A program made the position numbers and the translations under genes. Source: a virus (taxonomy: Duplodnaviria > Caudoviricetes). Taken from it: a stretch of DNA of 64,000 nt. The notes below the pieces were generated by a model, which saw only the letters and a list, made by a program, of their open reading frames with translations, had not been told where the DNA came from and did no database searches. Below, one piece after another: positions 8,983 to 29,633 of this stretch (position 1 is its first letter; every line of letters starts with the position of its first letter). Location: IMG/VR virus record IMGVR_UViG_3300029288_004137, positions 96,001 to 160,000 of that record, one strand, 5' to 3'.

Positions 8983-8992
8983 GAAATAAATT

Positions 8993-11176
8993 TTACGAAA
9001 GTTTCTTTATATTTGATATTGTAGTGCTCAATCCCCATTGATCCTTTTTAATTTTTGCCATGTATAAACCATTCTTAAATAAAACACTATTCTGTTTAAC
9101 ATCCCAACATTTAAGATTTGTTCCATATCCAGTGTTATCAATCACATCTAATATCCAATAATCTTTACCTGTTTTTGTTTTAAGTTTTTTAACATCTTTT
9201 AGAATAAACCAAGAAATTAAGTCATATGCACTATATTGTGAAATAGGTTTTATATCTATTTCTTTAAATTTATTTAAAATATAATTACTTAATACAAGAT
9301 AATAAGGATACATACCTGTTAATTCTGATATAAATGAAACTTTTTCTGATTTTTCAAAATCATGCATTCCTTTGTGTTCTTCAATATTCCTTCTTAATTC
9401 TGATAATGTTTTTGGTCTATCTTCTGCTACAGATAACCAAAAATGATTAAGATTCTCAAATCTTTCATCCATTAAATTATTTAATGCTCCACATTTAACA
9501 AGAGCACTTATAATTTTTTTATTTACTTTTCTATATATCATATCTTCATTAAAAAGTAAATCCTCTATTTTAGAATATGGTCTATGTTTAATAATTTCTT
9601 TGGCAGATTCTAATCCTATCCCTTTTATGGCAGTTAAAGGTTGAATAACTGAGAATTCATCTTGATCATCTGCTTCCCAATTAAGATTGGATTTATTTAT
9701 ATCACAATTCTTAATTGTAAATCCATTCTTTTGGACATTCGCAATTGCTATATCCTTATTCAATTCTGACTCTTTATCCAAATATGAACAAACCCACTCA
9801 ATCGGATAATAATACCACAACCAAGCACATTGATAAGAAAGAATTGAATAAGAGCAGCTATGACTGTTTGATACAGATATATCATTAGCATAAAATGTAT
9901 GATCTTCACTTTCTACTTCTAAATCATATGTTTCTTGAAATTCTCTATGAAATATTGCATCTTTTATTTTTTCTGCATGATGTTTCATCAAAATTTTTTC
10001 TCCTTTAGAAAGAATCTTTTTTAATGTCATCATTCCTTTTAATGTTTCTATTTTATGATCTAAAGTACAAGTAAGAGTATATCCATTAAATGTTTTTATT
10101 TCCATAACTTTCTTCTTTCCTTGCTTTATAACATCTTTAACTAAAACAAAACCATTTTTACTATTTACTTTCTCTCCTACTTGAACTTCACTTATTTTCT
10201 TATATCCAGTTAATGTTTCTACTAAAGTATTTTCACTTAAACATTTATTAAATCCATAACCACTAAAAAATACAAAGGTTTTCCAAATACGATCTGCATC
10301 TAATTCTGAAATATTTTTTTCTAAACATCCATTGATAAATTTTGTATAAAGTTTATTTTTAACTTCTTCTTCTTTTCCAGTCCCCTTTTTTGTTAAAACT
10401 TTTCTTAATAGATTTCCTTCACTAAGATTTATGTCTTTCCCAAGTCTATGTGCTATTGAAGCAATTTGTTCCTGATATACAAGAAACCCATAGGTTTCTT
10501 GTGTTTCTTCTTTCATTATTGAATGAACATATTTGATATTATTTGGATTGCCTTTTGCTTGTAAATATTGTTTATCAACATTTGCACTTAATGGCCCTGG
10601 TCTGTATATAGCTGTTATGTTTGAGAGTTCATTAATATTTAACGGTTTTGCTTCTTTACAAAAAGATTGTGCTCCTTCTTCTGTAAATTGAAATATTCCA
10701 ACAAACTTTCCTTTATGAAATATATTTTCATAAATATTTTTATCATTAAAATCAATAGCATCAGGATGAAGATTTTTGTTATAAAATTCTTTGATCTCTT
10801 CAAAAGAAATATTTTCTTTCTTTAAAGATTTTTTAAGAATTCTTCTAATTGTTTCTCCAACCATCTTCAAAGATGATAATCCAAGAAGATCAAACTTGAT
10901 AAATCCCATGGGTTCTAAATGTCTTACATTCTGTCCTTCTGACCAAGGTGATTGTATAACACCACCATTAGAAATTAAAGGTATTAATTTATTTAAGTTC
11001 TCTGCTACAAGAATCCCCCCAGCATGGGAGCTACAATTACTTAATATTATTGAGTTTTTTACTATTATGTTTGGATGTTTATCAAAAAAATATTTGTAAT
11101 TTAAATTATGATGAATATCAAAAACTTTTCGTTTCTTTTCAAGAATTTTAATAGATTTAATCTTTAATAATTTCAT
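8993..11176 (-). CDS. dnaE: DNA polymerase III alpha, C-terminal piece (IntC2 + extein with cis mini-intein)
   Basis: SHAGG, KFDLLGL, GIFQF, YRPGP, YQEQ, GYGFNK/SH, HhH (IKGIG), C-terminal OB-like region. Confidence 0.92.
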   Translation of the reverse strand: MKLLKIKSIKILEKKRKVFDIHHNLNYKYFFDKHPNIIVKNSIILSNCSSHAGGILVAENLNKLIPLISNGGVIQSPWSEGQNVRHLEPMGFIKFDLLGLSSLKMVGETIRRILKKSLKKENISFEEIKEFYNKNLHPDAIDFNDKNIYENIFHKGKFVGIFQFTEEGAQSFCKEAKPLNINELSNITAIYRPGPLSANVDKQYLQAKGNPNNIKYVHSIMKEETQETYGFLVYQEQIASIAHRLGKDINLSEGNLLRKVLTKKGTGKEEEVKNKLYTKFINGCLEKNISELDADRIWKTFVFFSGYGFNKCLSENTLVETLTGYKKISEVQVGEKVNSKNGFVLVKDVIKQGKKKVMEIKTFNGYTLTCTLDHKIETLKGMMTLKKILSKGEKILMKHHAEKIKDAIFHREFQETYDLEVESEDHTFYANDISVSNSHSCSYSILSYQCAWLWYYYPIEWVCSYLDKESELNKDIAIANVQKNGFTIKNCDINKSNLNWEADDQDEFSVIQPLTAIKGIGLESAKEIIKHRPYSKIEDLLFNEDMIYRKVNKKIISALVKCGALNNLMDERFENLNHFWLSVAEDRPKTLSELRRNIEEHKGMHDFEKSEKVSFISELTGMYPYYLVLSNYILNKFKEIDIKPISQYSAYDLISWFILKDVKKLKTKTGKDYWILDVIDNTGYGTNLKCWDVKQNSVLFKNGLYMAKIKKDQWGLSTTISNIKKLS
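9866..10243 (-). mobile_element. Cis mini-intein (126 aa) in DnaE at FNK|SH
   Basis: CLSENTLV start, TxxH block B (TCTLDH), YDLEV block F, SVSN|S end. Removal restores GYGFNKSH. Confidence 0.92.
11036..11176 (-). mobile_element. Split intein C-fragment, DnaE pair 2 (47 aa)
   Basis: KIKSIK...VFDI...HPN...ILSN|CSSHAGG. Confidence 0.85.
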
Positions 11177-11966
11177 TTATTTTTCCTAAAACATAGTTTT
11201 CAAATTGTTTATCATCCATTTCTTTATATTCTTTTTCCCAAATATAAAGAATTTTTATTCCTTCTTTTTCAACAACATCTTTTTTTCTTTCATCATGTTC
11301 CCAAACATTCTTTGCTAATTTAGCATCCTTTCTTCCTTTTTTAACTATAAAATTTTCATCATATATTCTTGGATCACAATGCCAATACGAACCATTAAAT
11401 TCTATTGCAACATTTTTTTCAAGAAGTAAAAAATCTAATTCATAAATTTTAATTCTTTTATGATGAACAAATGGAATATTAGCATTAATTAATATTTCTT
11501 TTATTCTTTTCTCTCCCGAAGAACACCAACCTTTACAAAAACATGCAAAAGAAAACGAAGCCATTTTTTCTTTCTTTTCTTCCGACATCCTAAAATATGG
11601 GTTATTTTTTCCTTTTCTACTATCAGCATATTTTTTTATAGAAGGATGATCTTTTTTTGTTAAACCTTTATTCCAAGGTCCTCCTCTTTTTTTGCTCCAT
11701 ATTTTTATTGCTTCACTTGTATTTCTGCGAATAATTTCATATTTTTTTAGGATCTTTAAAATTCCCTCTTTTCCAGGAGTTAATCCCATATTTTCTGCTT
11801 TTATCTTTTTTGAAATTTCAAAAGCAGAAAATCCTTCAAAATACAAACTAACAACATCTATCAATTCATATTTTTTTAAATATTCATCAATATATATTTT
11901 ATGACTTCTAAAAATATGTTTTGATAAAGATAAAAACTTTCTGTTACAAATTTTACAAATGTACAT
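11157..11966 (-). CDS. Free-standing homing endonuclease (C2H2 finger, NUMOD3-like, Vsr/DUF559-like nuclease) inside the DnaE intein break
   Basis: CKIC..H..H, PWNKGLTK, YELDF..AIEFNGSYWH..D..K..GIKILYIWE. Confidence 0.82.
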   Translation of the reverse strand: MYICKICNRKFLSLSKHIFRSHKIYIDEYLKKYELIDVVSLYFEGFSAFEISKKIKAENMGLTPGKEGILKILKKYEIIRRNTSEAIKIWSKKRGGPWNKGLTKKDHPSIKKYADSRKGKNNPYFRMSEEKKEKMASFSFACFCKGWCSSGEKRIKEILINANIPFVHHKRIKIYELDFLLLEKNVAIEFNGSYWHCDPRIYDENFIVKKGRKDAKLAKNVWEHDERKKDVVEKEGIKILYIWEKEYKEMDDKQFENYVLGKINEIIKD

Positions 11967-11972
11967 CTTATA

Positions 11973-12016
11973 ATACCTCCAGCAAAATTCACATATAATT
12001 AGTTTGCTGGAGGTAT
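11973..12016 (-). promoter_or_regulatory. 14-bp-stem hairpin sequestering the endonuclease SD, with ACTAATTA in the loop
   Basis: ATACCTCCAGCAAA / TTTGCTGGAGGTAT perfect inverted repeat. Confidence 0.8.
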
Positions 12017-12032
12017 CTTTTTCCTTTTTAAT

Positions 12033-12884
12033 TTAAAGATTTAAAGAAACAAAAAAATCTTCTTTTAATAAATCCTTTACTTGTTTATATCCATTTTGTG
12101 TTAAAACTTCATGATCTCCTGTTAATTCCAAATAACTCCCATCCTCTAATTCAATTGAAAAAACTTCTTTTTCTCCTAAAAAATAAACTTCATAATCATC
12201 ATTAAAATTTAACTTTCCCGAATAATCAAAATATGCTATAGAATCTTTATTTATATCTTTTATGTTTTTATATCCATTTAATGTCAAAATCTCTACTTTA
12301 TCTGTAAAACATGAACGAATCTGCTTACTTAGAGCTTTTATATGTTTTTCTAAGAATGGGTATTTTTCAAGATATTCCCTCAATGTCCCAGAATATTTTT
12401 TTAATTCTTCAAATGTAGGAGTATAAGCACCTGCTTGTATTCCATGTTCTTTTTTAATCTCAGACAATGATTCTTTTACCATTTTCGTTGTAACAGAATT
12501 AACTTCCTGATAATCAATTCCATAAAATTTTGATAAATCTTTTATAAGACTTTTTATCTGAAATGTATTCCAATTCGAAATTAAAACAACATTATCTTGC
12601 CCCCATTCATTAATAAGAAATTCTTTGAATTCTGTTGCTTCTGCTAAATCATAATCTATATCAGGAAATCCACCACCCTCTTCATCTCTAAGAAATCTTT
12701 CAAATTGAAGATTCCATCTTATAGGGTCTACTTCAGTGATATTTAATAAATAAGATATGAGACATCCAGCGCTTGAATTATGAACTGCTAAACCTTCTAT
12801 ATTATATGTATGTGTGTTTTCTACACATAAATCATAAACTTTTCCATCATAATGCTCATATTCAATCTTTTTAATTTTTATCAT
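12033..12884 (-). CDS. dnaE: DNA polymerase III alpha, middle piece (IntC1 - 155-aa extein - IntN2)
   Basis: SSAGCLISYLLNITEVDP, FERFL, FPDIDYD catalytic motif. Confidence 0.92.
   Translation of the reverse strand: MIKIKKIEYEHYDGKVYDLCVENTHTYNIEGLAVHNSSAGCLISYLLNITEVDPIRWNLQFERFLRDEEGGGFPDIDYDLAEATEFKEFLINEWGQDNVVLISNWNTFQIKSLIKDLSKFYGIDYQEVNSVTTKMVKESLSEIKKEHGIQAGAYTPTFEELKKYSGTLREYLEKYPFLEKHIKALSKQIRSCFTDKVEILTLNGYKNIKDINKDSIAYFDYSGKLNFNDDYEVYFLGEKEVFSIELEDGSYLELTGDHEVLTQNGYKQVKDLLKEDFFVSLNL
12036..12311 (-). mobile_element. Split intein N-fragment, DnaE pair 2 (92 aa)
   Basis: QIRS|CFTDKVEILT...LTGDHEVLTQNG...stop. Confidence 0.9.
12777..12884 (-). mobile_element. Split intein C-fragment, DnaE pair 1 (36 aa)
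   Basis: MIKIKKIEY...VYDLCVENTHTYNIEGLAVHN|S. Confidence 0.92.
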
Positions 12885-12904
12885 TTTTTAATTTCCATGT
12901 ATAA

Positions 12905-13834
12905 TTAAATTTCTACAATTTCATCATTTTCATTTAATTTTTCTGCTTCTTTCCATCCGTTTTTAGTTAATATTTTATGTTCTTTGGTACATTGAATAAT
13001 TCTTCCATCTTCTAATTCAATTTTAATAATCTCTTCTGAAACAGAATATTTAAATAAATCCAAAATTATATTATTTGAACCATCATGAGATATAACAGAA
13101 TCACCCTTTTTTATATCTTGTATGTTTTTAAAACTTTTATCTGCCATCTTTACTTTTGAATCTTTTAAAAAACATCCTCTTCCTGAAGAGACCAGTTGCA
13201 TCTTTTTTGCTTTGTCAGATATTGCTTTCATTGTTAAGAAATATCCAGCAAATCCTCTTTTAAGGATAACTCCTAATTCTTTTGAGAGACGTTCTTTATA
13301 AATTGTATTATTTGCAAATTTTGATGAATTAAAGATATCCCAAACTATTTGAGAAAATGTTTCTTCTGAACTTTTATCTGAAGAAACTATAAATGTAGGT
13401 AATTTTATGCTTCTTTCTGGTAGAAAATCTTCTATTATTGAATGTGCTATTTCATATGTCTTTTCTATTGATTCTGATACAATTGCCCAATCATAATCGA
13501 CATTAGCAATATTAGAATATTTTTTAGCGGATTCAAATACTTGATCTCCATTCTTTGGATATAATTCATAACCAATTTCTTCAACACTCTTTGGTAAAGG
13601 ATTTAAACTTTTTGAAGATAACCAACCTAACCTTTTATATAATTCTCTACTTTCCCATAATTCTGGTCTTGGATAATGAACATCACAAGTTGATATAAGT
13701 TCAAGATCAATTTCATGATGAAGTTTAATAAGAAGTTTATTAATTATGTGTTGTTCATTTAACGAATTCCATTGAAGTTCTCCATACCAATTTTTTCCAA
13801 AAATCTCTCTCATTTTTAAAGTTAAATTTTTCAT
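12905..13834 (-). CDS. dnaE: DNA polymerase III alpha, second piece (PHP C-half and palm start + IntN1)
   Basis: IFGKNWYGELQ, TCDVHY, YKERLSKEL, GFAGYFL, SGRG|C. Confidence 0.9.
   Translation of the reverse strand: MKNLTLKMREIFGKNWYGELQWNSLNEQHIINKLLIKLHHEIDLELISTCDVHYPRPELWESRELYKRLGWLSSKSLNPLPKSVEEIGYELYPKNGDQVFESAKKYSNIANVDYDWAIVSESIEKTYEIAHSIIEDFLPERSIKLPTFIVSSDKSSEETFSQIVWDIFNSSKFANNTIYKERLSKELGVILKRGFAGYFLTMKAISDKAKKMQLVSSGRGCFLKDSKVKMADKSFKNIQDIKKGDSVISHDGSNNIILDLFKYSVSEEIIKIELEDGRIIQCTKEHKILTKNGWKEAEKLNENDEIVEI
12908..13174 (-). mobile_element. Split intein N-fragment, DnaE pair 1 (89 aa)
   Basis: GRG|CFLKDSKVKMAD...CTKEHKILTKNGWKEA...stop. Confidence 0.92.
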
Positions 13835-14412
13835 TTCTTCAAGAACTTTTTCTCACCAAGATAATTAAACTTATAATAAACATTTGCATACATCCCTCCA
13901 ATACAAGCAGATGAAGCAATAATGTTATTTCCCAATTCTTTAAGAATTTTATAATCAATTCTTGGTTTTTTATAAAAGCCATTCTTAAAAGAATAACTTA
14001 TTAATTCAAATAAATTGTTTAATCCTTTTTGATTTTTTGCTAAAAGCAAGATATGACTTCTATTCGAAAGAGAATCTTTAAATTCTCTTTCCGTTTCATC
14101 TTCCGATACAAATCCTTTAACCTTTTCTTTTTTATCTTTTTTATCAGATGATTTTTCTTTTTCTTTTTTCCATTCATCAATGCTATCAATATAATATGCT
14201 TCAACTCCAAAAATAGGTTTGATTTTTCTACCTTCTTTATTCATTTTTATAGAATGAAATAATTGATAAGTCATACCAGACATATTTCCATGATCTGTTA
14301 ATGCAATCGCATCCATACCATTCTCATATGCATATTCCATCGATTCTTGAGGATATCCTAAAGCATCAAATGTAGAAAAATTACTATGAACATGAAGATT
14401 AATGAATTTCAT
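13831..14412 (-). CDS. dnaE: DNA polymerase III alpha, N-terminal PHP piece
   Basis: LHVHSNFS, ALTDHGN, PIFGVEAY, HILLLAKN, FYKKPRID, SSACIGG. Confidence 0.9.
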   Translation of the reverse strand: MKFINLHVHSNFSTFDALGYPQESMEYAYENGMDAIALTDHGNMSGMTYQLFHSIKMNKEGRKIKPIFGVEAYYIDSIDEWKKEKEKSSDKKDKKEKVKGFVSEDETEREFKDSLSNRSHILLLAKNQKGLNNLFELISYSFKNGFYKKPRIDYKILKELGNNIIASSACIGGMYANVYYKFNYLGEKKFLKK

Positions 14413-14839
14413 ATAATCGCTCCAAAATCAAAAATTTAACATAAAAACTATTAACTTGAGAAAATATTTTTTTTAATTCTGATTCTTTATAACAAGAAAT
14501 TAAATATTTAGCAACATCAAAATGTCCATTTTCTGCTGCCAATTTTAAAGAACGATCATACCAAGCATAAATATTAGCACCACATTCAACAAGATATTTA
14601 ACAATACCCAAATAACCTTGATATGAAGCATATCTTAAAGCAATATCATTATCAATATGAATATTAGCACCAATCTCAATAAAGTATTTAATAATATCAA
14701 GATGTCCATATTCTGCTGCTGTTCTTAAAGCATAACCATCCCAAGTATTAATATCGAAACCATTTTTAATATATTCTTTGACTCGTTGAATATTATTGTT
14801 TTTAATTACATTAATAAAACCATTGTAATCATAATTCAT
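14399..14839 (-). CDS. Ankyrin-repeat protein
   Basis: ALRTAAEYGHLDIIKYFIEIGANIH repeats. Confidence 0.9.
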   Translation of the reverse strand: MNYDYNGFINVIKNNNIQRVKEYIKNGFDINTWDGYALRTAAEYGHLDIIKYFIEIGANIHIDNDIALRYASYQGYLGIVKYLVECGANIYAWYDRSLKLAAENGHFDVAKYLISCYKESELKKIFSQVNSFYVKFLILERLYEIH

Positions 14840-15248
14840 AATATCTTTCCAAAATCAAACATTTAACATAAAAATTATTTTTTTTAAAATCATCATCATA
14901 AAAAGAATAATCAGTATAAAAAGAAACATTTTTACTCTTACTATTATAATAATCTTCAATATTGAAAAATAACTCTTTCAATTCTGTTTTTGTATATAAA
15001 GAAAGCAAATATTTAACAATATCAAAATTTTTATGAATTATTGACCATCGTAAAGCATAATCATTATTAGCATGAATTTTAGCACCTTTTTCAACTAAAT
15101 ATTTAATAATACCTAAATGTTTTTTACATTCACCTATTGCTGCTCTAAAATGGAAATCATTGTTTTCATGAATAATATCAATATTCTGCTCAACCAATTC
15201 TTTAACTTTCTGAAATTTTCCATGAACAACTGCATCAAATAAATCCAT
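14829..15248 (-). CDS. Ankyrin-repeat protein
   Basis: IIKYLVEKGAKIHANNDYALRW. Confidence 0.85.
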   Translation of the reverse strand: MDLFDAVVHGKFQKVKELVEQNIDIIHENNDFHFRAAIGECKKHLGIIKYLVEKGAKIHANNDYALRWSIIHKNFDIVKYLLSLYTKTELKELFFNIEDYYNSKSKNVSFYTDYSFYDDDFKKNNFYVKCLILERYYEL

Positions 15249-15672
15249 TATAAAACCTTTCCAAAATTAAATATTTAACATAAAAATTATCAATCTGAGA
15301 AAATAATGCTTTTAATTCTGTATTAGAATATAAAGAAATTAAATATTTGATAATATCAAAATGACCATTTTCTGTTGCCCATCGTAATGTTTCATCATTA
15401 CTTGCATAAATATTAGCACCATATTCAACAAGATATTTGACAATACCAGAATAACCATAAAGTGCTGCAATTCGTAAAGGATAATCATTCCAAATATGAA
15501 TATCAGCACCATGCTCAACAAGATATTTAACAATATCAAAATGACCATCTTCTGCTGCTGTTCTTAAGGCATAACTTTCATCAGCATGAATATAAATACC
15601 ATTTTCAATATATTTTTTAACTTGCTTAAAATCATTACAAATAATTGCATTGAAGAATTCGTTAATATCCAT
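15235..15672 (-). CDS. Ankyrin-repeat protein
   Basis: ALRTAAEDGHFDIVKYLVEHGADIH repeats. Confidence 0.9.
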   Translation of the reverse strand: MDINEFFNAIICNDFKQVKKYIENGIYIHADESYALRTAAEDGHFDIVKYLVEHGADIHIWNDYPLRIAALYGYSGIVKYLVEYGANIYASNDETLRWATENGHFDIIKYLISLYSNTELKALFSQIDNFYVKYLILERFYNGFI

Positions 15673-15714
15673 TATAAAACTTTTCCAATATTTTTTATTT
15701 TTGAACTAATAAAA

Positions 15715-16044
15715 TTAACTAATATACTTAGGATCTAAGTCTTCTATTGAAGAAAAAATTGAAGTTCTTTCGTTATATTTAACTTTACATTCTACATAAA
15801 AATAGCACATATTAATTTTTAAATTTTTATATATATCATGTTTATTATCATAATATTTTATTAAATTACTTTCTGAATAAGTTATAGGATAAAATAATGA
15901 AACATCATCTGTTTCTGATTTATAAATCAATTCAAACAAATAATGTTGTTTTGTTACTATATCCATTTTAATATAAAAAATTGGAATATTATTTTTTTCT
16001 ACCATTATGTCTGTGATAGACATTCTGTTTATATCTATAATCAT
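15715..16044 (-). CDS. Hypothetical protein
   Basis: 109-aa ORF with ATGA overlap. Confidence 0.55.
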   Translation of the reverse strand: MIIDINRMSITDIMVEKNNIPIFYIKMDIVTKQHYLFELIYKSETDDVSLFYPITYSESNLIKYYDNKHDIYKNLKINMCYFYVECKVKYNERTSIFSSIEDLDPKYIS

Positions 16045-17012
16045 TTATTAATAAATTTCCAATAATCTTTGTCAAATTTTACTTTTGAATCCCAAAAACT
16101 ACAAGTTTTAGTAAATAGAGTAGGTTTTGTTAAAATAGAAGAAAAAGAACTTTTCATATAATCTTTATAATAATTCCACCCATCTATACGATAATACCAC
16201 GGAAGATCAGCACAATGAACTTCTTTTGATAAAAGAAGATCTTTAATAAAAATATCATTTAGTGATGCATCTAATATGTCTGATTTTGCATCACAACGAG
16301 AAAAAAAGTTACCTTTTTTCTCGTTGAATTTCCATCCTAAATTTGTATAAATATTCAATAAATATTTTTTTAGTTCATTTAAATTGAATGTAAATCCAAT
16401 TGGATATCCATCAAAAATAGATTTTTCTTTATATCTCAATATAAAGTTATTTGAACTTCTTATTTCTGGCTGGAAATCATTTACAAAATAAGGATCATAA
16501 ACTGAATAAGGAAATGCTACATAAAATTTTGAAGGCGAACAATAAAAACTAATCTGTTTATATACCCAAAAAGCTTTCTCAGCACCAAGTAAAGCACTCC
16601 ATCCTAAACAATCAAAAATCCCTCTTTTGCTAGGATGTATCGGAACATAATAAATTGGAATTTTTATTAAGAATTTTTTAAACTTTAATCCCAATCTTTT
16701 TGTCATAAAATTTAATCTTCTTAATGGAACTGTATGAAAATAAAAAAACTCTTTATATCTTTTTCTTAAATTCAAAATATCTTCTTTATAAGAAACTATC
16801 CAAATTGATCTACACCCTGCCATAGCACATTCAATAATAGCTCTTTCTATTGCCAAATAATTTTTATTAATTGGTATATAAAAATCTTTATCTAATTCAG
16901 AAAAATATGTTTGATTCTTTGCTGTTGGAATAATACCAACAATCGTATGATCAGAACCATCTTTCGTAGAAAGACGATTGTGAAATAACACAAATTCTTC
17001 AGTAGGTTTCAT
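16041..17012 (-). CDS. Hypothetical protein, divergent nucleotidyltransferase/GT-A-like N-terminus
   Basis: VGIIP...IPI...AIERAIIECAMAGCRSIWIV; the GxGxR signature is missing. Confidence 0.45.
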   Translation of the reverse strand: MKPTEEFVLFHNRLSTKDGSDHTIVGIIPTAKNQTYFSELDKDFYIPINKNYLAIERAIIECAMAGCRSIWIVSYKEDILNLRKRYKEFFYFHTVPLRRLNFMTKRLGLKFKKFLIKIPIYYVPIHPSKRGIFDCLGWSALLGAEKAFWVYKQISFYCSPSKFYVAFPYSVYDPYFVNDFQPEIRSSNNFILRYKEKSIFDGYPIGFTFNLNELKKYLLNIYTNLGWKFNEKKGNFFSRCDAKSDILDASLNDIFIKDLLLSKEVHCADLPWYYRIDGWNYYKDYMKSSFSSILTKPTLFTKTCSFWDSKVKFDKDYWKFINK

Positions 17013-17809
17013 AAATATCTTTTTTCCATATCCTCTATAGAATCATAATTAAATTCTATATTTTTATCTATAATATTTTCAAAATAATTCCTAGTTGTTT
17101 GATATATCTCTCTACCTTTATAGGTAGTAGATAAATTTTCTCTATACCAACTTCTTACAAATGAACCATCTTTTTTAAAAGTTTTAACAGGATTCAATTT
17201 ACCTCTTATATTTCTCTCTTTTAAAAATGCTTCAACTCTTATCTTGTAAGAAGCTCCATCAAAATTTTCATCTAATATTTGCTCATCAGTTAAATATGCT
17301 AAAACTCTAAAGTTCTTTTGACTTTCAATTAATATATGAAATAATTCATAATTTTTTGTTTTTATTTCCTTTGGATTCTTTAAATAATCTTTATAATTTT
17401 TAAATCCAAAATTATATACAACAATATTTTTATCATTTATATAATCTTCTTTTTTATATTGTTCTATACCTTTTATGTCTGTTTCATCAAATATAACCAA
17501 TTTTTTATAATTGATATAAAATTCTTTATTGTTTTTAAGAACAACCAATAATCTTTGCTTATCAATTTCAATACAAATAAAATTTACACCATCTACAGTC
17601 CCAAATACTTTTCCTTTAAGAGAAAGAATATTCATTATTCTTGAATATCTTAATGCTCTTTCTTCATTTTCATCATTTTCTTTTTTAAAACAAAAAGGTT
17701 TTTTAGAATAAAGAAAAATAATTGAAGAATAATTATAAAATGAATATAACACTGATTGATATGTAGCACCTAAAACAAGACAATCAGTGTTATATTCAAA
17801 ATTAATCAT
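17009..17809 (-). CDS. Hypothetical protein
   Basis: 266-aa coupled ORF. Confidence 0.55.
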   Translation of the reverse strand: MINFEYNTDCLVLGATYQSVLYSFYNYSSIIFLYSKKPFCFKKENDENEERALRYSRIMNILSLKGKVFGTVDGVNFICIEIDKQRLLVVLKNNKEFYINYKKLVIFDETDIKGIEQYKKEDYINDKNIVVYNFGFKNYKDYLKNPKEIKTKNYELFHILIESQKNFRVLAYLTDEQILDENFDGASYKIRVEAFLKERNIRGKLNPVKTFKKDGSFVRSWYRENLSTTYKGREIYQTTRNYFENIIDKNIEFNYDSIEDMEKRYL

Positions 17810-18838: not shown

Positions 18839-18843
18839 TGTTT

Positions 18844-19107: not shown

Positions 19108-19148
19108 AACTTCCTCCTATTTAATAATTTTTTATCTTAGATTAACTC

Positions 19149-19177: not shown

Positions 19178-19202
19178 GATTTAAATTTGACAAAAAAACT
19201 AA

Positions 19203-19601: not shown

Positions 19602-19956
19602 TACTCACCTCCAAATTTTGTTTTTCATTAGTTAAATGATGATAAATTTTACTAATAAATTCATAAAACTCTTTATCATTCATAATGCCTTTCGCACGAT
19701 TTACATCTAAAGTAACCCATCTTAAATTATCTATATCATACTTTAATTCTGGGAAATCTTTGACTGATAAAATATGATCTACTGAAGAATTTTTATCAAA
19801 TCTTAATACATCTCCAGTTAATGGACAACGATACTTTTGTTTTTCCATTAAATTAAAAAGATCCATCCAAAGATCACTATTACAAAGACATCGTTGTGCT
19901 AATGCTCTTAACTTTCTTATTATTCTCTTTTCTTCTTTCGTTTTCTTAGATTTCAA
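19591..19956 (-). CDS. HNH endonuclease
   Basis: RCPLTG...SVDHI...DNLRWVTLDVNRAKG. Confidence 0.8.
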   Translation of the reverse strand: MKSKKTKEEKRIIRKLRALAQRCLCNSDLWMDLFNLMEKQKYRCPLTGDVLRFDKNSSVDHILSVKDFPELKYDIDNLRWVTLDVNRAKGIMNDKEFYEFISKIYHHLTNEKQNLEVSKED

Positions 19957-19963
19957 TTAAATG

Positions 19964-21967: not shown

Positions 21968-22003
21968 TTTTTTTACTTTTTCCTTTCTAATTTTTCTATT
22001 AAC

Positions 22004-22032
22004 ACTATATCACATTCAACTTCAAATGTCAA
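22004..22032 (-). promoter_or_regulatory. Sigma70-type promoter (duplicated)
   Basis: TTGACA-17 nt-TATAGT with extended TG. Confidence 0.8.
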
Positions 22033-22129
22033 GAACAAAATTTTATGAACATTTGCCCCAACCACACTGAGAACAGGATACACATCCGTCTATATAAATT
22101 AACTGCGATCCACAATCAGGACAATATTG
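22004..22129. repeat. 126-bp direct repeat, copy 1 (nrdJ 3' end plus sigma70 promoter)
   Basis: Matches 24299..24424 with one mismatch. Confidence 0.95.
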
Positions 22130-22230
22130 TTGTTCAAGATTTCCAGTAAAAATAAAATTATAAGGTATTCCATTACACAGATTCCTGTCATGCGATAAGT
22201 TTGTCTTTGCGCGCTCATGTTTTTACCCCC

Positions 22231-23370
22231 TCAATTTTTTTCTAATAAAAATAGAAACTCCTTATTAGGTTCTTCAATTTCTTTAATCCAATCGTTCGTC
22301 CATCGCATATTCGCCATCACGTTTTTTTTAAAATCGATTTTTTCGATTTCAATAATTTTCCCAGATTCGGATAAGACTTGAATAAGTTCTTCCAAAGTTG
22401 CTCGGCCACCAGAGCTATATGAGAGTATAACAAATTGTGAATCAATATTTTTAATCAATTTTTCTATTGCTTCAATGACTAAAAATTTTCCAGTTTGACT
22501 TTTTCTAAATTCTTCAAAAATAGATGCTGAAATTGTATCTGATGTATCTTCCCGTCTTTTTGCTTTTCCGAATATCTTTGGCTTATCGTTTAAACATATT
22601 GTCGTCCACAAATGATAATATGCTTGATACCTAACACGCGATGGAGGCATTTTTTCGTTATTTGAACCATATGGGGGATCGAAGTAAGCTAGGTCGCAAT
22701 TAACTTTATCAAGAATAGAAAAAATATCGCCTTGAAACACTCGATGATCAATGTCGTTAACCCAAATGTTTGGACAAGTCAATCTCATTGTTTTATATGA
22801 TCGTGGAGACCATTCCTTAAGATACGCAGCAAAATGGCCTAGTGTTGAATCTACTTTGTCCATAGCTAAAATCAATGATGTTATCAATACAGTCTTTTCG
22901 GTAAATGGCAAATTTAATTTATCAATTTCTTCACGGATAGCATCCAATTTCATCGTGTTATGTATTTGCCATGGTTTCTTCAATTCATCTTTTGATAAGC
23001 ACTTTCCGCCATTGCCGTTTGCATAACCACCATAGTTCTCGGTGAACCATCCATCAACACCAGGAAGGTTATTTAGATGATCAATTATTGGTATAAAATA
23101 GCTTTTAGGTTGAATATTCTTTAGATAACAATTAGCAAAATAAAAGGAGTAAGTTGAAATATCATTTGCAATTACAGTGAATTTGGATTGTGCAAATGCT
23201 TGACTGACCCGAGTAGAGCCTGAAAACCCGTCAAAAATAGTTTTTGACTTAACTTTGTTTGCAAGAGTTAAAATATGTTTAAGTAACTTTAATTTAGAGC
23301 CAGTATACTTTATTCCCTCAGTGCTTGGAACATCAGTAATTATTTCGTTTTCAAATGGTGACAGTTGCAT
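22231..23370 (-). CDS. DNA adenine methyltransferase (D12/Dam class)
   Basis: KYTGSK, FDGFSGS, ANDIS, YFDPPY, LSYS. Confidence 0.9.
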   Translation of the reverse strand: MQLSPFENEIITDVPSTEGIKYTGSKLKLLKHILTLANKVKSKTIFDGFSGSTRVSQAFAQSKFTVIANDISTYSFYFANCYLKNIQPKSYFIPIIDHLNNLPGVDGWFTENYGGYANGNGGKCLSKDELKKPWQIHNTMKLDAIREEIDKLNLPFTEKTVLITSLILAMDKVDSTLGHFAAYLKEWSPRSYKTMRLTCPNIWVNDIDHRVFQGDIFSILDKVNCDLAYFDPPYGSNNEKMPPSRVRYQAYYHLWTTICLNDKPKIFGKAKRREDTSDTISASIFEEFRKSQTGKFLVIEAIEKLIKNIDSQFVILSYSSGGRATLEELIQVLSESGKIIEIEKIDFKKNVMANMRWTNDWIKEIEEPNKEFLFLLEKN

Positions 23371-24234
23371 TTAGTTGTTACCAAGCAAAGATTGTTTCTT
23401 TTGTTCTTCAATATCAGTTTTAAATATTTCTAATGCAGGTCCGTACCCTTTTTGAGTTGAAACTAATGCGTGGGAAAGTAGCTCGACAAATAAAGAATTA
23501 TCAGAATAATCAATCCATCCGTTTGTTGCAGATTTAAAATAAACTAGCGCGTTCTTAGTATTTGTCCAAAGACCACGTTGTAAGGCGTTTGCAGCAGCAT
23601 CACCATAGCGCACTTCGCAAATATAACCACCATTATTGTCGTAAAATTTATATACAGGATATATTCGTTTTTTTCCTTTTCCTTCTCCTTCTTTTTCAAC
23701 TTCAATTCTAACGGTCGAATTCATTGCTTTTTCAAAATCAAAAACAAGTATATTACACCTCTTGTTTTTTTCGTCATAAATTAGTGGTAAAACATTAATG
23801 TTGTTAAATTCTGACATCTCATCTGCTGAAAAAACAGATTGTATGCTGCTTTTCCCTGTAATACGATCACCTTTTTTTGATAAAAATGGGAACATCTTTG
23901 ATTTTTTATCTGTTGATAGCTGAAGATTACCAATCCCATAAGCCTTTAAACTGATTGAAAAACTAACATTATTAATTTCATTTGTAATTGTAATATCTTC
24001 CTCATGCTTTTTTGCCCTATATAGGTCTTTGCCAACATGTTTGGATTTAAAACCATACATAAATTGATTTATGAATTCCGATATTCCGATTTCAGCTAAA
24101 TCCCCATGTATCTTGGTGCCTATTGATCGGCTGGTAAATATGTTTGACAATGTAGTTTTTATTAGGTGAGGATTATTTTTATTGAAATGAGTAAATTGAG
24201 CTACAAAATCTTTAAATGCTTCTTGCTGTGTCAT
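23371..24234 (-). CDS. Putative type II restriction endonuclease
   Basis: HGDLAE...EEDI...ISLKAYG pattern; abuts the MTase; start reassigned to MTQQ after SD GGAAAGGA. Confidence 0.65.
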   Translation of the reverse strand: MTQQEAFKDFVAQFTHFNKNNPHLIKTTLSNIFTSRSIGTKIHGDLAEIGISEFINQFMYGFKSKHVGKDLYRAKKHEEDITITNEINNVSFSISLKAYGIGNLQLSTDKKSKMFPFLSKKGDRITGKSSIQSVFSADEMSEFNNINVLPLIYDEKNKRCNILVFDFEKAMNSTVRIEVEKEGEGKGKKRIYPVYKFYDNNGGYICEVRYGDAAANALQRGLWTNTKNALVYFKSATNGWIDYSDNSLFVELLSHALVSTQKGYGPALEIFKTDIEEQKKQSLLGNN

Positions 24235-24298
24235 TATTTTTTCCTTTCCACAAAGTGTTTCAAAAGTCAAAAACCATTCCTCAACTTTCTTATATATA

Positions 24299-24424
24299 AC
24301 TATATCACATTCAACTTCAAATGTCAAGAACAAAATTTTATGAACATTTACCCCAACCACACTGAGAACAGGATACACATCCGTCTATATAAATTAACTG
24401 CGATCCACAATCAGGACAATATTG
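24299..24424. repeat. 126-bp direct repeat, copy 2 (includes promoter 24299..24327)
   Basis: Matches 22004..22129. Confidence 0.95.
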
Positions 24425-26767
24425 CTTGTCTGCTTCTTCTCCATTTATAATGTATTTCTTCAAAACTCTTGCTAAAGTTTTATTAATACTCGTAAAATCA
24501 GAATCAGGATCATCTTTATTTAACTGCTCTACCAAGATTCTTGGTTTCGCTCCATGTCTTAAAGAATTAGAAATTAATCGCGTTAATGTTCCATGATTAG
24601 GATTTTTAAATGTTTTCACAACGTCAAGAACAAATCCATCATTTTCTTTATCAAAAATAAGATCATAATGACTTGGTTTTGTTTTATAAGAATGCTTTAC
24701 AAGAATACCTTTTTTATACGCAGTTGGTATTCCTACAAAAAAAGATCTTCCTGCAAACACTTCATATGGTTTACCATTCATTAATCCAACAAAAACAATC
24801 CATTTTTTACTTTTTACGTTAATGTGATGTATATCACATTCAAGTTCTTTCGGTCTTATTACTGCATCAACTTGATGAAAATTTGTAGGTTGTTCTAACA
24901 TATCTTTTGATACAAGAACTCCCTTCCTACATCCCTCAACAAAGACGGTAATTCCTTTTAATTTTTTTGACCACGCTTCTTCATATATTGTTCCTACGGT
25001 TTCAGATGTAGTCCCTATTGGAAGATTTATTGTGCTTGAAATTGACTGATCTATATGTCTTTGAATTGCAGACTGCATTTCTATTCTTTGTTTCCATGGA
25101 ACATTATTGCTTTCAATAAAAATATCTGGTGTATCATTTTTATTTGTTACATTTTGATAATCTTTAATATTCTTGTGAAACACATCGTAAGAAAACCATT
25201 TTTCTCCATCTTCAGTTACTTCTGCATTTAAAAACTTATCTTGCTCATCAAAATTAAGTTTTCTTCTTCTCTTGTAAGAGTTTCTGAAAATAGGTTCAAT
25301 ACCAAAACTTGTTTGTGCAATAATAGATACACCTGCTGTTGGCGCATTTGTTAATATCGATATATTTCTTCTACCAAAGTTTTCCATATCTTTAATAACA
25401 TCTGGAGTAAAAGAATTAAAAAATTTGCAAGTTCTTTCTTTCTTCCAATTAAAAATTGGAAAAATCCCTCTTTCAATACCTAATTTAATACTTTCTTGAT
25501 ATGCACCTAATTTTAATTCTTCATATATCATATCTGTCATTTCTATCGCTTCAGGACTTCCATAAATCATATTTAAACGAGACAAAGCATCAGCTAACCC
25601 GTTAGTTCCCAATCCTGTTCTTCTCCCTTCCTGAGCAGATTTAATAAGTTTCTTCCAAATTTCTTTTTCATCTTCTTCGTCTGTAATTTCAATTAAATTA
25701 TAAAGTTTTTCAATTTCTAAATCAATTAAATCGTCTGATAAACGCATTGCTACAGAAACAACTTTTCTAAAAGTATTCAAATCAACAAATGAATTAGGTG
25801 AAAAAGGATTAACAATAAAATTCTTTAAATTAATTGAAATAAGTCTGCAAGAGTCATATCCACTTAAAGGTATTTCTCCACAAGGATTTGTAGTTAATGC
25901 TTCGAATCCTTCTTCTTTATAGAAATGAGCAGGAAGATAATTTGTGATATTATCCCACATTAATAATCCTGGATCTCCTGTTTTTGTAGCACAATTTATG
26001 ATTTTATTCCAAAGATCTAACGCTTTTATAGTTTTTGTATATTTAGGTTCTTTTGAATTTATTGGCCATTTCAAAACAAACTCTTCATTGTGCTGAACAG
26101 CTTCCATAAAACTATCTGTTAATTTAACAGAAATATTCGCTCCTGTAACTTTTTGTAAATCTTCTTTTAATGAAATAAATTTTTCTATGTCTGGATGCTG
26201 AACATCCATTGATATCATTAATGCTGCTCTTCTTCCGTTTTGTCCTATTAACTTACAAACAGAAGAATAAAAATCAACAAATGACCAGGCACCTGTTGAT
26301 GTACCAGCACTATTATTAACTGCTGCTCCACTTGGTCTTAATGTAGAAACATCAATTCCTACTCCACATCGTCTTTTAAAAAGATTTGCTAAATCTCTTG
26401 CAGAGTTAAATATACCAGACATTGTATCCAATGGAGAATCTACAACAATACAATTTGATAAAGAAGAATTGCTATAACTATTCCCTATCCCAAACATTGG
26501 AGATCCTTGCGGAATAATATATTTAAAATCTTTAAAATAAGAATAAATTTCATCTTCTGTTAAAGGTTTCATATAATTTGATTCAATTCTTGCAAATTCT
26601 TTTGCAAGTCGATGATGCATATCATCAGGTGTTAATTCCAAAAAATTACCTTTTTTATCTTTTAAAGCATACTTTTTCATCCACGTATCTGTAGCAAGAT
26701 GATCATCATCAAAATATTTTAAAGTAGCTTCCTTTACTTCATCTAAAGAATAAAACTGTTTTGTCAT
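24338..26767 (-). CDS. nrdJ: Class II (adenosylcobalamin-dependent) ribonucleotide reductase
   Basis: SLSNC, TNPCGE, RRTGLG, APT, DQSISSTINLP, TSCPD-like domain and C-terminal CxxC..CxxCxxC; no NrdB gene in the window. Confidence 0.85.
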   Translation of the reverse strand: MTKQFYSLDEVKEATLKYFDDDHLATDTWMKKYALKDKKGNFLELTPDDMHHRLAKEFARIESNYMKPLTEDEIYSYFKDFKYIIPQGSPMFGIGNSYSNSSLSNCIVVDSPLDTMSGIFNSARDLANLFKRRCGVGIDVSTLRPSGAAVNNSAGTSTGAWSFVDFYSSVCKLIGQNGRRAALMISMDVQHPDIEKFISLKEDLQKVTGANISVKLTDSFMEAVQHNEEFVLKWPINSKEPKYTKTIKALDLWNKIINCATKTGDPGLLMWDNITNYLPAHFYKEEGFEALTTNPCGEIPLSGYDSCRLISINLKNFIVNPFSPNSFVDLNTFRKVVSVAMRLSDDLIDLEIEKLYNLIEITDEEDEKEIWKKLIKSAQEGRRTGLGTNGLADALSRLNMIYGSPEAIEMTDMIYEELKLGAYQESIKLGIERGIFPIFNWKKERTCKFFNSFTPDVIKDMENFGRRNISILTNAPTAGVSIIAQTSFGIEPIFRNSYKRRRKLNFDEQDKFLNAEVTEDGEKWFSYDVFHKNIKDYQNVTNKNDTPDIFIESNNVPWKQRIEMQSAIQRHIDQSISSTINLPIGTTSETVGTIYEEAWSKKLKGITVFVEGCRKGVLVSKDMLEQPTNFHQVDAVIRPKELECDIHHINVKSKKWIVFVGLMNGKPYEVFAGRSFFVGIPTAYKKGILVKHSYKTKPSHYDLIFDKENDGFVLDVVKTFKNPNHGTLTRLISNSLRHGAKPRILVEQLNKDDPDSDFTSINKTLARVLKKYIINGEEADKQYCPDCGSQLIYIDGCVSCSQCGWGKCS

Positions 26768-27228
26768 TTCTTAACTCCCGATTTAAATGCCTTATATTTA
26801 CTATTAAGTAATTTCTTTGTATTGTTTTCTGTTTGTTCATTTATTTCACTTATAGAAAGATTTAACTTTTCTAACACTTTGATTGATACATTTGATGTAT
26901 CAATCTCCATTGGATATATAATACCATCTATACCATTGCGATTTTTAGCAATAAACATTCTTCCTACGTTTTTATTCTTATCTTCAATAGTTCTTGATAC
27001 TGAAAAAATAAAATCTGCAACAAAACATTTGTTAAATGCTTCACTTATTGATTCCATTGTTATAACCTCAGCATTAAGACCAGAATTATGAGTTAAAACA
27101 CCGTTTGAAAGAAAATACATGTGCTCCGATTCTATAGTTATATCAACAGTATTTCCTTCACCATATAATTCTATACTTTCAATTTCATCTATAATAAAAT
27201 CATTTTTATTCAATTTATGTTTGTTCAT
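26764..27228 (-). CDS. Replicative helicase C-terminal piece (IntC + extein)
   Basis: THN|SGLNAEVITMESISEAF...ADF...AKNRNG. Confidence 0.9.
   Translation of the reverse strand: MNKHKLNKNDFIIDEIESIELYGEGNTVDITIESEHMYFLSNGVLTHNSGLNAEVITMESISEAFNKCFVADFIFSVSRTIEDKNKNVGRMFIAKNRNGIDGIIYPMEIDTSNVSIKVLEKLNLSISEINEQTENNTKKLLNSKYKAFKSGVKK
27085..27228 (-). mobile_element. Split intein C-fragment of helicase (48 aa)
   Basis: DEIESIE...TVDITIESEHMYFLSNGVLTHN|S. Confidence 0.92.
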
Positions 27229-28321
27229 TCACTTCACCTTTTAAAATAAAAGCAATACACTTTTTTAATATTTCAACCGGATATTCTTTATATTCTTTTT
27301 CTTTAATTCTCAGCACTTCATACCCTTTGCTAATCAAAATTAAAGTTTTAATTTTATCTTTGTTTTTAATTTTATCTTTTTTATGCCAATATTCTCCATC
27401 AAATTCAATTATTTTATTTTTATATATAAAATCAACCATAAAATAATATCCACCACCTAATTCTGAATATTCTTTGAATTTAAATCGCTTTTCTTTATTA
27501 AGACTAGCATATTTAACCAAATTTTCTTCTATTTTTGATAATTCTACAATTTTTTTAAATAACTTCTGTGATATTTTTGAATAAGTTGTTGAACTTAATC
27601 TTGCTCCTTTATATGACATTTCCTTCATATGTTTTTTATATTTTCTCCATTCTTTTTCTCCATCTTTTTCTCCATATTTTTTAATATACCAATTTTTTGT
27701 AAATCTTTTTCTTTGATTTTCTCTTCTATTTTTCCAAATCATATATCCTTCTTCTTCACCGTGATTTTTTATTAAATCTTCTAACTTTAATCCATTATCC
27801 CATCCACCTTTATTTTTAATTGATTTTCTCCATTTTTTAAGGTATTGCTCTTGTCTCTTTTTGCCTTCTTCTTCGCCATATTTTTCTATTTTTGATATTA
27901 AAGAAGTACATGCTTTTGATTTACAAAGATTTTTCCAGGACTCCTCTCCATATTTTTTAATATAATCTTGTTTATTAATCGATGATTTTTGATTTTTTTC
28001 TTTAAAAAATCTCAACCCAAGCGCTTCTCCATATCTACTTTCCATTGATTTCAAAGAACTACTATCATTTTTAAAAATTGTTTTTGATTTTATTATTCGA
28101 TCTACCCAAGGTAAAGGAACCTCATAAATAATCATTTTATACAACAAAGGAAATAAACTATATTTGTTCCAATCATTTTTTTTACAGACCTCTAATATAT
28201 TCCACAATTCTTCCTTTTGTTTTATAGAAAGTTTATTTTTATCTATATCTTGAAAATATTTACAAGAAATAAGATTTTTTACTTCATCCATCCAATTTTC
28301 ATTTTTTAACAAACAGTCCAC
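27215..28321 (-). CDS. Free-standing homing endonuclease (KYGEEEG repeats + Vsr/DUF559-like) inside the helicase intein break
   Basis: VDF..KIIEFDGEYWH..D..K..GYEVLRIKE. Confidence 0.82.
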   Translation of the reverse strand: MDCLLKNENWMDEVKNLISCKYFQDIDKNKLSIKQKEELWNILEVCKKNDWNKYSLFPLLYKMIIYEVPLPWVDRIIKSKTIFKNDSSSLKSMESRYGEALGLRFFKEKNQKSSINKQDYIKKYGEESWKNLCKSKACTSLISKIEKYGEEEGKKRQEQYLKKWRKSIKNKGGWDNGLKLEDLIKNHGEEEGYMIWKNRRENQRKRFTKNWYIKKYGEKDGEKEWRKYKKHMKEMSYKGARLSSTTYSKISQKLFKKIVELSKIEENLVKYASLNKEKRFKFKEYSELGGGYYFMVDFIYKNKIIEFDGEYWHKKDKIKNKDKIKTLILISKGYEVLRIKEKEYKEYPVEILKKCIAFILKGEVNEQT

Positions 28322-29633
28322 TTCCTTTCTCCAACCCTGTTTCTATCGATTTGAAATTTCCATCAATTACTGGAAACATATGCTTTTCAGAACATATAAT
28401 TTCTTTGCCAGATTTTAATTTAATCTTAAAGAGTTTTTGGTAATTTTTGTTTATATCAATCACTTTTTTCCATCCTACTTGTGTTTCTACTTCACTTCCT
28501 ATTTTTATCTTATTAATTTCTGTTTCAAAAATTTTGTCTCCTTCTCTTGTATATAGTAAAGTATTTTCAAAAAAGCATCTATTTGTTTGCGAAGCGGTAT
28601 ATACTGGACAATTAAATATTTTCGCCAATCCCCTCAAATCTTCATAAATGCTCTCTAAATCAAATCTTTTTTGTTCATAAGATTTAACAGAAGCTAATAG
28701 ATCTGCATAATCTACTATAATCATTCCTACATTTATTCCTCTTCTTTTCATTTTCTCAAGATGATTTCTAATTGTTATAACTGTTGCACCTTTGGTTGGA
28801 TATTCTTTTATTATTAATCGTCCTTTAACTTGTCCAATTTGATCAAAAACTTCATTTTTAAATCTTCCCAATTCATTTAGGGTAAATTTTGTTATGCAAC
28901 TATCATACCTTTTTCCTATAACAGTTTCTTGCAATTCTAAAGTATAATGAACAACATTAATACCTTGTAATAAAGCAGAAGCACCTAAATGAACCAAAAC
29001 CATCGATTTACCTGCACCTGTTGGAGCAATAACAACTCCTAATTCTTTTTTACCAAGTCCACCCTGTAATATTGTATCTATTTCAGACCATCCAGTTGAT
29101 ACCGGATCTCTATATTGAGGAAGATATCTTTCTTCAAAATCCTTAATATATTCATATCCCATATCAGAATCAGTCCCTAAAATTAATGCTGATGAAATAA
29201 GTTTATTAATTTCATCAAATGAAGATTTATTCATTAAGGGAATTGCTGCAAGAAACGCTTCTTTTAGTTTCTGCTTTTTACAGAAATCAACAGATTGTTC
29301 TTTTATATAATCTGATCCTTCTGGGAGATCTTTGCTTGATAATATTCTTGAAAAATATTCAATTACTTGCTTATTCACATTATTATTATCACTTTCTTGA
29401 GTCCTTATCATTGTTGTTAAGGTATCAAGAGAAGGATGAACACCATACTTGTCTGTATAATCATATAATTTTTCAACAAATGTCTGAAGATAAAGTGGTT
29501 CCAAAAAAGAAACTGGCATAACTTCACGCATTCTTTCACAAAAACTTCTGTCAAGAACCATTATTTTAACAAGTTTTTCTTGAAATTGAATTCCATAAGA
29601 AGAAAAACTTGTTTTTTCATTATCGTTTTTCAT
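28299..29633 (-). CDS. Replicative helicase (T4 gp41/DnaB-like) N-terminal piece + IntN
   Basis: APTGAGKS Walker A, IIVDYADL Walker B, TASQTNR|C. Confidence 0.92.
   Translation of the reverse strand: MKNDNEKTSFSSYGIQFQEKLVKIMVLDRSFCERMREVMPVSFLEPLYLQTFVEKLYDYTDKYGVHPSLDTLTTMIRTQESDNNNVNKQVIEYFSRILSSKDLPEGSDYIKEQSVDFCKKQKLKEAFLAAIPLMNKSSFDEINKLISSALILGTDSDMGYEYIKDFEERYLPQYRDPVSTGWSEIDTILQGGLGKKELGVVIAPTGAGKSMVLVHLGASALLQGINVVHYTLELQETVIGKRYDSCITKFTLNELGRFKNEVFDQIGQVKGRLIIKEYPTKGATVITIRNHLEKMKRRGINVGMIIVDYADLLASVKSYEQKRFDLESIYEDLRGLAKIFNCPVYTASQTNRCFFENTLLYTREGDKIFETEINKIKIGSEVETQVGWKKVIDINKNYQKLFKIKLKSGKEIICSEKHMFPVIDGNFKSIETGLEKGSGLFVKK
28302..28577 (-). mobile_element. Split intein N-fragment of helicase (92 aa)
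   Basis: CFFENTLL...ICSEKHMFP...stop. Confidence 0.9.

Follow-up and report, generated by a model that had tools for sequence, protein, structure and literature searches.

Here we describe the replication region of a 64,000-nt stretch of phage DNA (the window), which comprises bases 96001-160000 of the 209,974-bp (~210-kb) IMG/VR virus record IMGVR_UViG_3300029288_004137, a genome with a CheckV completeness of 100%. Two genes of this region, encoding a DnaB/gp41-like helicase and a C-family (DnaE) polymerase, are interrupted by split inteins, the N- and C-terminal halves of which (IntN and IntC) form parts of separate open reading frames (ORFs). The region has a GC content of ~27%, all of its genes lie on the minus strand, and the surroundings of the intein pairs constitute a T4-like replication module that, besides the polymerase, includes a RecA/UvsX-like gene, a gp32-like gene and a 5'-3' exonuclease. 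An earlier reading of the letters alone (the original prediction) had proposed three split-intein pairs between positions 11036 and 28577; all three are real, and this range extends exactly from the end of the IntC at the second DnaE site to the start of the helicase IntN. We consider it probable, at roughly 0.78, that the helicase and dnaE are two fractured genes whose three split inteins splice to yield a helicase in one piece and a DnaE assembled from three, and that the inteins find their partners mainly through their divergence from one another.

The helicase and dnaE loci

The same layout is met at three positions, one in the helicase gene and two in dnaE (sites 1 and 2): adjacent ORFs lie on the same strand, the first ending in an IntN and the next beginning with an IntC (Table 1). 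For the helicase, the N-terminal ORF matches Pfam DnaB_C (4.1e-17) and Intein_splicing (7.4e-5) as well as the PHROG DnaB-like helicase (3.2e-58), and the junction can be aligned to the unsplit helicase of a related 57-kb JGI contig, denoted L007. The IntN aligns with the gp41-1 intein structure (6qaz) at E 1.6e-11, with ~50% identity across 73 aligned residues; the match of the IntC alone is weak (E 0.15). Like gp41-1 (6QAZ), the helicase intein carries a block B of the form CSExH and combines a positive IntN with a negative IntC, but its insertion site differs: the window junction TNR|SG agrees with the site of gp41-8 (LNR|SAY) and not with that of gp41-1 (SGY|SSS). In addition to the NR|S junction, the motifs LKSGK, HxFP, DEIxSIE and NGxLTHN resemble gp41-8, a likeness judged only by eye and against an error-bearing printed sequence (Pinto 2020 supplement). 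The nearest database relatives are 45-49% identical, and the two closest IntN relatives carry net charges of +9 and +10. On sequence grounds, we assign the helicase intein to the gp41-1/gp41-8 family as a new, diverged member.

The dnaE gene is distributed over pieces a and b, a middle fragment and a C fragment. Split intein DnaE-1 (IntN1 and IntC1) occupies site 1, GRG|S, where the IntC1 start follows the IntN1 stop after only 20 nt, without an intervening endonuclease gene; DnaE-2 (IntN2 and IntC2) occupies site 2, QIRS|C. IntN1 matches gp41-1 at E 2.1e-6, and DnaE-2 shows weak sequence similarity to the cyanobacterial split DnaE intein (E ~1e-3). The middle fragment carries the second half of one intein and the first half of the other, on either side of the palm sequence with the PDID motif. 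A further, contiguous (cis) mini-intein of dnaE matches the fused gp41-1 intein 6qaz from end to end (E 2.8e-12), and its charges are segregated in the manner of a split intein, with +8 on the first 92 aa and -7 on the last 34 aa.

Free-standing endonuclease genes lie between the halves of the helicase and DnaE-2 inteins and have a nuclease core in common, IEF[DN]GxYWH (E 4e-4). For the DnaE endonuclease, the Pfam REase hit is weak and all Pfam matches are below threshold; by eye, the protein resembles an ORF, disrupted by an insertion sequence, at the equivalent position in L007. The hairpin that precedes its start codon has a folding energy of -24.8 kcal/mol (z -4.28), and none of 200 shuffled sequences was as stable. 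This structure would sequester the ribosome-binding site of the DnaE-2 endonuclease gene. The 5' untranslated region (UTR) of the helicase endonuclease contains no significant hairpin (z -0.66). The original prediction mentions neither of the endonuclease genes, nor the cis mini-intein, nor a break of dnaE between pieces a and b that involves no intein.

Table 1. Features of the helicase and dnaE loci and a polymerase-like ORF, in window coordinates
Feature	Position	Strand	Description
DnaE C fragment	8993-11176	-	IntC2, then fingers, HhH and C-terminal domains; Pfam DNA_pol3_finger 3.1e-34, HHH_6 2.5e-14
Contiguous mini-intein in DnaE	9866-10243	-	126 aa; site GYGFNK|SHS
IntC2 (DnaE-2)	11036-11176	-	47 aa; ends LSN|C; net charge +8; extein begins with Cys
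Endonuclease gene between DnaE-2 halves	11157-11966	-	269 aa, free-standing; PHROG homing endonuclease 2e-10
RNA hairpin	11972-12017	-	perfect 15-bp stem directly ahead of the start codon of the DnaE endonuclease; GGAGG Shine-Dalgarno in the 3' arm
DnaE middle fragment	12033-12884	-	IntC1, 155-aa palm extein with PDIDYD motif, IntN2; Pfam DNA_pol3_alpha 8.3e-24, Intein_splicing 6.3e-9
IntN2 (DnaE-2)	12036-12311	-	92 aa; junction ...QIRS|C; net charge -10
IntC1 (DnaE-1)	12777-12884	-	36 aa; ends VHN|S; net charge -2
DnaE piece b	12905-13834	-	220-aa extein ending GRG, then IntN1; Pfam Hint 4.2e-8, DNA_pol3_alpha
IntN1 (DnaE-1)	12908-13174	-	89 aa; junction GRG|C; net charge -3
DnaE piece a	13831-14412	-	N half of PHP domain, 193 aa; Pfam PHP 1.8e-32
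Helicase C fragment ORF	26764-27228	-	48-aa IntC, then helicase C-terminus; C-extein begins with Ser
Helicase IntC	27085-27228	-	48 aa; ends THN|S; net charge -6
Endonuclease gene between helicase intein halves	27215-28321	-	368 aa, free-standing; DUF559, putatively Vsr-like nuclease core; Pfam DUF559 28.2 bits (cut-off 20.6)
Helicase N fragment ORF	28299-29633	-	DnaB/gp41-like N-extein of 352 aa, then 92-aa IntN
Helicase IntN	28302-28577	-	92 aa; junction ...SQTNR|C; net charge +4
PolA-like ORF	33702-34892	-	396 aa; only domain is a family-A DNA polymerase, Pfam 3.9e-13; near the gp32-like gene

Splicing motifs, relatives and comparison with fractured genes

All four mini-inteins, three split and one contiguous, begin with Cys, contain a block B of the form TxxH or SxxH, end in Asn (HN or SN) and are followed by Ser or Cys at the +1 position. 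Their halves are of full length (89-92 aa for IntN and 36-48 aa for IntC of the split inteins). Removal of the inteins in silico gives GRG|SxAG, RS|CSxHAGG and GFNK|SHS, as in intein-free relatives; at site 2, the window reads QIRS|CSSHAGG, compared with RS CSRHAGG in the relatives. The middle fragment has 16 metagenomic homologues (BLASTP identity 39-58%), among which C192, T255 and D257 hardly vary and H258 does not vary at all. A model of the complex of the DnaE-1 IntN and IntC reached an ipSAE of 0.86, compared with 0.00 for the best of three controls; this mark is attained by 51 of 78 solved complexes and by 2 of 108 mismatched pairs. Contact agreement between runs was at least 99% and the pLDDT of the partner at least 87. 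Because intein complexes are among the solved structures, this outcome reports likeness to known inteins and not binding. Taken together, the conserved residues and junctions suggest that the three split inteins are capable of splicing.

These features also bear on an alternative that we regard as highly unlikely, namely that at least one intein pair is splicing-dead and merely clamps the pieces of its enzyme together non-covalently. DnaE-1 would be the weakest candidate for activity, as both of its halves are acidic and no endonuclease accompanies it; moreover, DnaE already tolerates a break without an intein, between pieces a and b. However, the catalytic residues are complete in all pairs and conserved in the homologues, and the half lengths fall inside the ranges reported for comparable elements (88-105 aa for IntN and 33-54 aa for IntC; Dassa et al. 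2009, PMC2677866). The DnaE-1 site of L007 does bear an endonuclease gene, which indicates a recently active element.

The break between pieces a and b, at 13825-13840, consists of a 1-nt frame offset in which AAG AAA TGA overlaps an ATG (an ATGA overlap). In relatives, the PHP domain is unbroken at this point and a conserved Met occupies the position where piece b begins; a single additional A in this run would bring the two ORFs into frame. The break may reflect a real two-piece PHP domain, a site of reinitiation or slippage, or an assembly error. For site 1, we also considered a contiguous intein with a stop codon introduced by sequencing error. This candidate was rejected, as seven independent metagenomic proteins (P0006, P0010, P0016, P0017, P0019, P0020 and P0022) start at the IntC1 start or a few residues from it; the endonuclease gene in the corresponding gap of L007 further contradicts such an error.

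The arrangement is that of fractured genes, in which gp41, DnaE, NrdA/J, IMPDH and other genes are broken by split inteins and a free-standing endonuclease gene lies between the halves (Dassa et al. 2009, PMC2677866). The same study described Vsr-like (or GIY-YIG) endonucleases, hairpins in the 5' UTR ahead of endonuclease ORFs and an endonuclease-free gp41-7 locus, and found that the sites in fractured DnaE differ from the cyanobacterial DnaE site (PMC2677866). The window matches these systems in its host genes (a gp41-type helicase and DnaE), in the position of the intein breaks, in its phage origin and in its local complementary charges, which Dassa et al. noted as well. Likewise shared are the endonuclease genes between the helicase and DnaE-2 halves, the hairpin in the 5' UTR of the DnaE endonuclease and, at DnaE site 1, the lack of an endonuclease gene as in gp41-7. 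The elements of the window are thus of the known fractured-gene type. The original prediction had singled out the polarity of the helicase pair as the reverse of the usual one, but such positive-N/negative-C polarity is not new: it was reported for gp41-1 and gp41-8 in 2009 (PMC2677866) and later analysed structurally by Beyer et al. (10.1101/546465).

What sets the window apart is the number of elements per gene. Dassa et al. worked from short metagenomic reads with one split intein per locus, and for their DnaE-1 a second intein was no more than hinted at; the window belongs to a complete genome that holds two split inteins and a cis intein in a single dnaE, together with a split helicase, and L007 holds four split inteins. 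Compared with the cyanobacterial Ssp and Npu DnaE inteins, the host protein is the same and DnaE-2 has the canonical polarity of acidic IntN and basic IntC, but the cyanobacterial halves reside at distant loci, whereas those in the window are adjacent, with an endonuclease gene, and the sequences are only distantly related. The closest parallel to the middle fragment comes from engineered tandem trans-splicing (PMC12707363; six blocks joined by five inteins in PMC7090010), where a middle piece likewise bears the IntC of one intein and the IntN of another, as does ORF 12033-12884. Those systems are man-made, whereas the arrangement in the window is natural and resides in a presumably essential gene. 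A limited literature search found no description of a naturally occurring protein that contains more than one split intein.

Related loci were retrieved from IMG/VR with an alignment query; a query with the single middle fragment returned nothing. Among the related dnaE loci that cover the whole gene, 65 of 69 are unbroken, which identifies the inteins as minority, mobile alleles. The IntC1-extein-IntN2 architecture occurs in three of the 16 middle-fragment homologues, and in another four together with a cis intein at PDID. L007 is syntenic with the window (helicase, NrdJ, ThyX, dnaE and a dUTPase-family gene), and four split inteins divide its dnaE (7376-18370) into five ORFs, with the two halves separated by an endonuclease ORF in every case. 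The inteins occupy the sites GRG|S, RN|C, SGL|CIFQEQ, which is new, and FCK|SHS; the net charges of the four pairs (IntN/IntC) are -3/+1, -12/+3, -3/0 and +10/-9, so that three of four are acidic in the IntN. The L007 helicase is unsplit at the site used in the window, while its NrdJ and IMPDH genes bear inteins. At the FNK|SHS-type site (L007:15643-18370), the split intein with an endonuclease gene between its halves closely resembles, by eye, the cis mini-intein of the window. A natural cis and split pair of one intein lineage at one site should help in studying how inteins become split or fuse again.

The endonuclease gene at site 2 of L007 is itself disrupted, by an opposite-strand insertion (L007:10896-13813) that encodes a TnpB/Cas12f-like protein of 417 aa and a serine resolvase of 189 aa; this looks like an IS607-type element nested in a homing element. 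Other relatives retain less. L011 has an intein at site 2 only, with a 61-aa endonuclease remnant, and L009 (a 176-kb contig; 10001-13338) combines site 2 without an endonuclease and a cis intein inside the PDID motif. No N-terminal dnaE piece was found within 10 kb upstream of the L009 fragment that starts with IntC1, and its site-1 halves appear unlinked. The window and its relatives display, within one gene family, several stages of the model of gain, decay and loss put forward by Dassa et al. (2009). Three homologous dnaE fragments (P0012, P0013 and P0015) start just before PDID; their leader of ~45 aa is unrelated and devoid of intein end motifs, and dnaE in this clade may be broken at a further position that involves no intein.

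Charge and pairing specificity

Net charges (K+R-D-E) counted by script are identical to the hand counts of the original prediction for all three pairs (Table 1). Its argument that cross-splicing would be hazardous also holds: a reaction of IntN1 with IntC2 would skip the catalytic, PDID-bearing palm piece. Moreover, IntC1 and IntN2 are parts of one polypeptide, and a cross-reaction between them would cyclise it. No second DnaE, second DnaB-type gene or PolB was found in the genome, and with single copies of DnaE and DnaB in a complete genome, we infer that correct pairing is under selection. Pairing of the cognate halves would then be a functional requirement of the replisome.

A natural orthogonal set told apart by charge had been proposed. 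That three distinct split inteins coexist in one replication module is borne out, and their orthogonality is plausible; charge as the source of specificity is not supported by the net-charge matrix. The product of the net charges is +6, and hence repulsive, for the cognate DnaE-1 pair, whereas two non-cognate combinations are attractive (-24 for the DnaE-1 IntN with the DnaE-2 IntC, and -8 for the helicase IntN with the DnaE-1 IntC). Local charges give a similar picture: the second half of IntN1 carries -5 and the head of IntC1 carries 0, compared with -7/+6 for DnaE-2 and +5/-2 for the helicase intein.

A specificity code in which electrostatic capture admits the cognate partner only, and so renders the set orthogonal, can nonetheless point to several facts. 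The charges are real and differ between the pairs, and polarity is kept within lineages: at site 2, IntN2 ranges from -6 to -17 in 16 proteins and IntC2 from +2 to +8 at four loci, and helicase-type IntN carry +4, +9 and +10. The middle fragment of the window combines two negatively charged halves, IntC1 (-2) and IntN2 (-10), whose mutual repulsion would disfavour cyclisation, and swapping the charge of whole fragments lowered the cross-reaction of Npu DnaE, in work as cited in 10.1101/546465. Yet in homologues, IntC1 is usually charged +1 to +5 beside an IntN2 of -6 to -13 on the same chain; cyclisation would thus be electrostatically favoured there, and still the architecture recurs. Sites 1 and 2 have a common polarity in the relatives, and in L007 an acidic IntN is common to three of the four pairs. 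In Npu DnaE, a charge swap between strands beta3 and beta6 left cross-splicing intact and conferred no orthogonality (10.1101/546465); conversely, gp41-1 and gp41-8 share the same polarity and are orthogonal (PMC7090010). We therefore consider such a code distinctly unlikely. Net charge is not what encodes pairing, and at most contributes as a steering factor.

Sequence divergence is the more probable source of specificity. Pairwise identity among the three inteins is 24-37% for IntN and 25-38% for IntC, and this strong divergence alone predicts orthogonality. A published comparison of 16 split inteins, including four from fractured genes, found 15 to be orthogonal to one another (PMC7090010). 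Judged from these sequences, the three pairs of the window are probably mutually orthogonal, too. An AlphaFold2 model of the whole middle fragment, inspected for intramolecular docking of IntC1 on IntN2, was of low quality (mean pLDDT 58.5; below 50 for residues 9-66, which include most of IntC1).

Fidelity could also be kinetic or spatial, such that halves made from neighbouring cistrons on a single mRNA encounter the adjacent half before any other; true orthogonality would not be required, and might not exist in vitro. The halves are indeed adjacent or only an endonuclease gene apart, as close as the 20 nt at site 1, and they lie on one strand, where a scan found no convincing minus-strand terminators between the pieces. 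The same common strand, tight spacing and lack of convincing terminators suggest that the fragments are co-expressed, as the original prediction had assumed. However, in L009 the N-terminal dnaE piece is not beside the fragment that bears IntC1, and the architecture persists regardless. Within the middle fragment, moreover, proximity of IntC1 and IntN2 favours the wrong, cyclising reaction, so that intrinsic discrimination is still needed. As the full explanation of fidelity, neighbourhood thus appears unlikely.

We therefore favour a mechanism in which a split intein of the gp41-1/gp41-8 family would have broken the helicase gene, with a putatively Vsr-like endonuclease gene between the halves, and two unrelated split inteins would have broken dnaE, of which the one at site 1 has presumably lost its endonuclease and the one at site 2 retains one. 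After translation, each IntN would meet its own IntC, and the pair would fold as a HINT domain and splice, amounting to natural tandem trans-splicing in the case of DnaE. Fidelity would come mainly from divergence in sequence and shape among the three inteins. Electrostatic steering may aid two of the pairs, DnaE-2 with its canonical acidic-N/basic-C polarity and the helicase intein with the reverse, gp41-type polarity, and synthesis from adjacent cistrons may help as well.

Several observations weigh against this interpretation. DnaE-1 has no charge complementarity (-3/-2, with an IntC head of 0), which is unusual among efficient natural split inteins. The penultimate residue, His in the DnaE-1 and helicase inteins, is Ser in DnaE-2 and the cis intein. 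The 1-nt frame break in the PHP domain may mean that DnaE is non-functional or in part assembled non-covalently, or that the contig contains an error, and the evidence stems from one metagenomic contig. Finally, given the PolA-like ORF, DnaE is not the sole polymerase-like gene of the phage.

Extended to the relatives, the data tip slightly in favour of a broader proposal: that this phage clade builds DnaE by natural tandem trans-splicing, from three fragments here and from five in L007, and that its intein sets have been selected for orthogonality without being coded by charge. Orthogonal and fast split inteins are tools for multi-fragment protein ligation, and sets that work together in one essential protein are good candidates, although, with 15 mutually orthogonal split inteins already characterised, the benefit in practice is incremental. 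The system is also suited to asking what sets pair specificity, a question on which the numbers given here argue against net charge. Furthermore, the locus shows the extent to which a replicative polymerase can be broken up by homing elements while the phage presumably stays viable.

Transcription signals and neighbouring genes

The T4-late promoter motif TATAAATA is not enriched (17 observed versus 16.7 expected) and does not occur upstream of the endonuclease genes; a scan for sigma-70 promoters remained at or under the level of shuffled sequences. A megablast search of GenBank phages with the dnaE region gave no match. The same neighbourhood includes a class II ribonucleotide reductase gene (nrdJ) without an intein and a ThyX-like ORF, named by eye from its translation. 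Outside the window, the gene for a T4-like portal protein (1037 aa; G000:C1:163678-164754; L001:208-3321, minus strand) contains a full-size intein with a LAGLIDADG domain, the fifth intein of the genome.

Directly upstream of dnaE lie three tandem paralogous ORFs of 146, 139 and 145 aa (14399-15672, minus strand), which by eye are ankyrin-repeat-like. A block between the ThyX-like ORF and nrdJ (19591-24378, minus strand) has a locally higher GC content (0.33) and encodes a D12-class adenine methyltransferase (22231-23370), an unannotated ORF of 335 aa, an ORF of 667 aa with an NPPY motif and a 121-aa ORF that is possibly an HNH nuclease. This block may be a restriction-modification or anti-restriction island.

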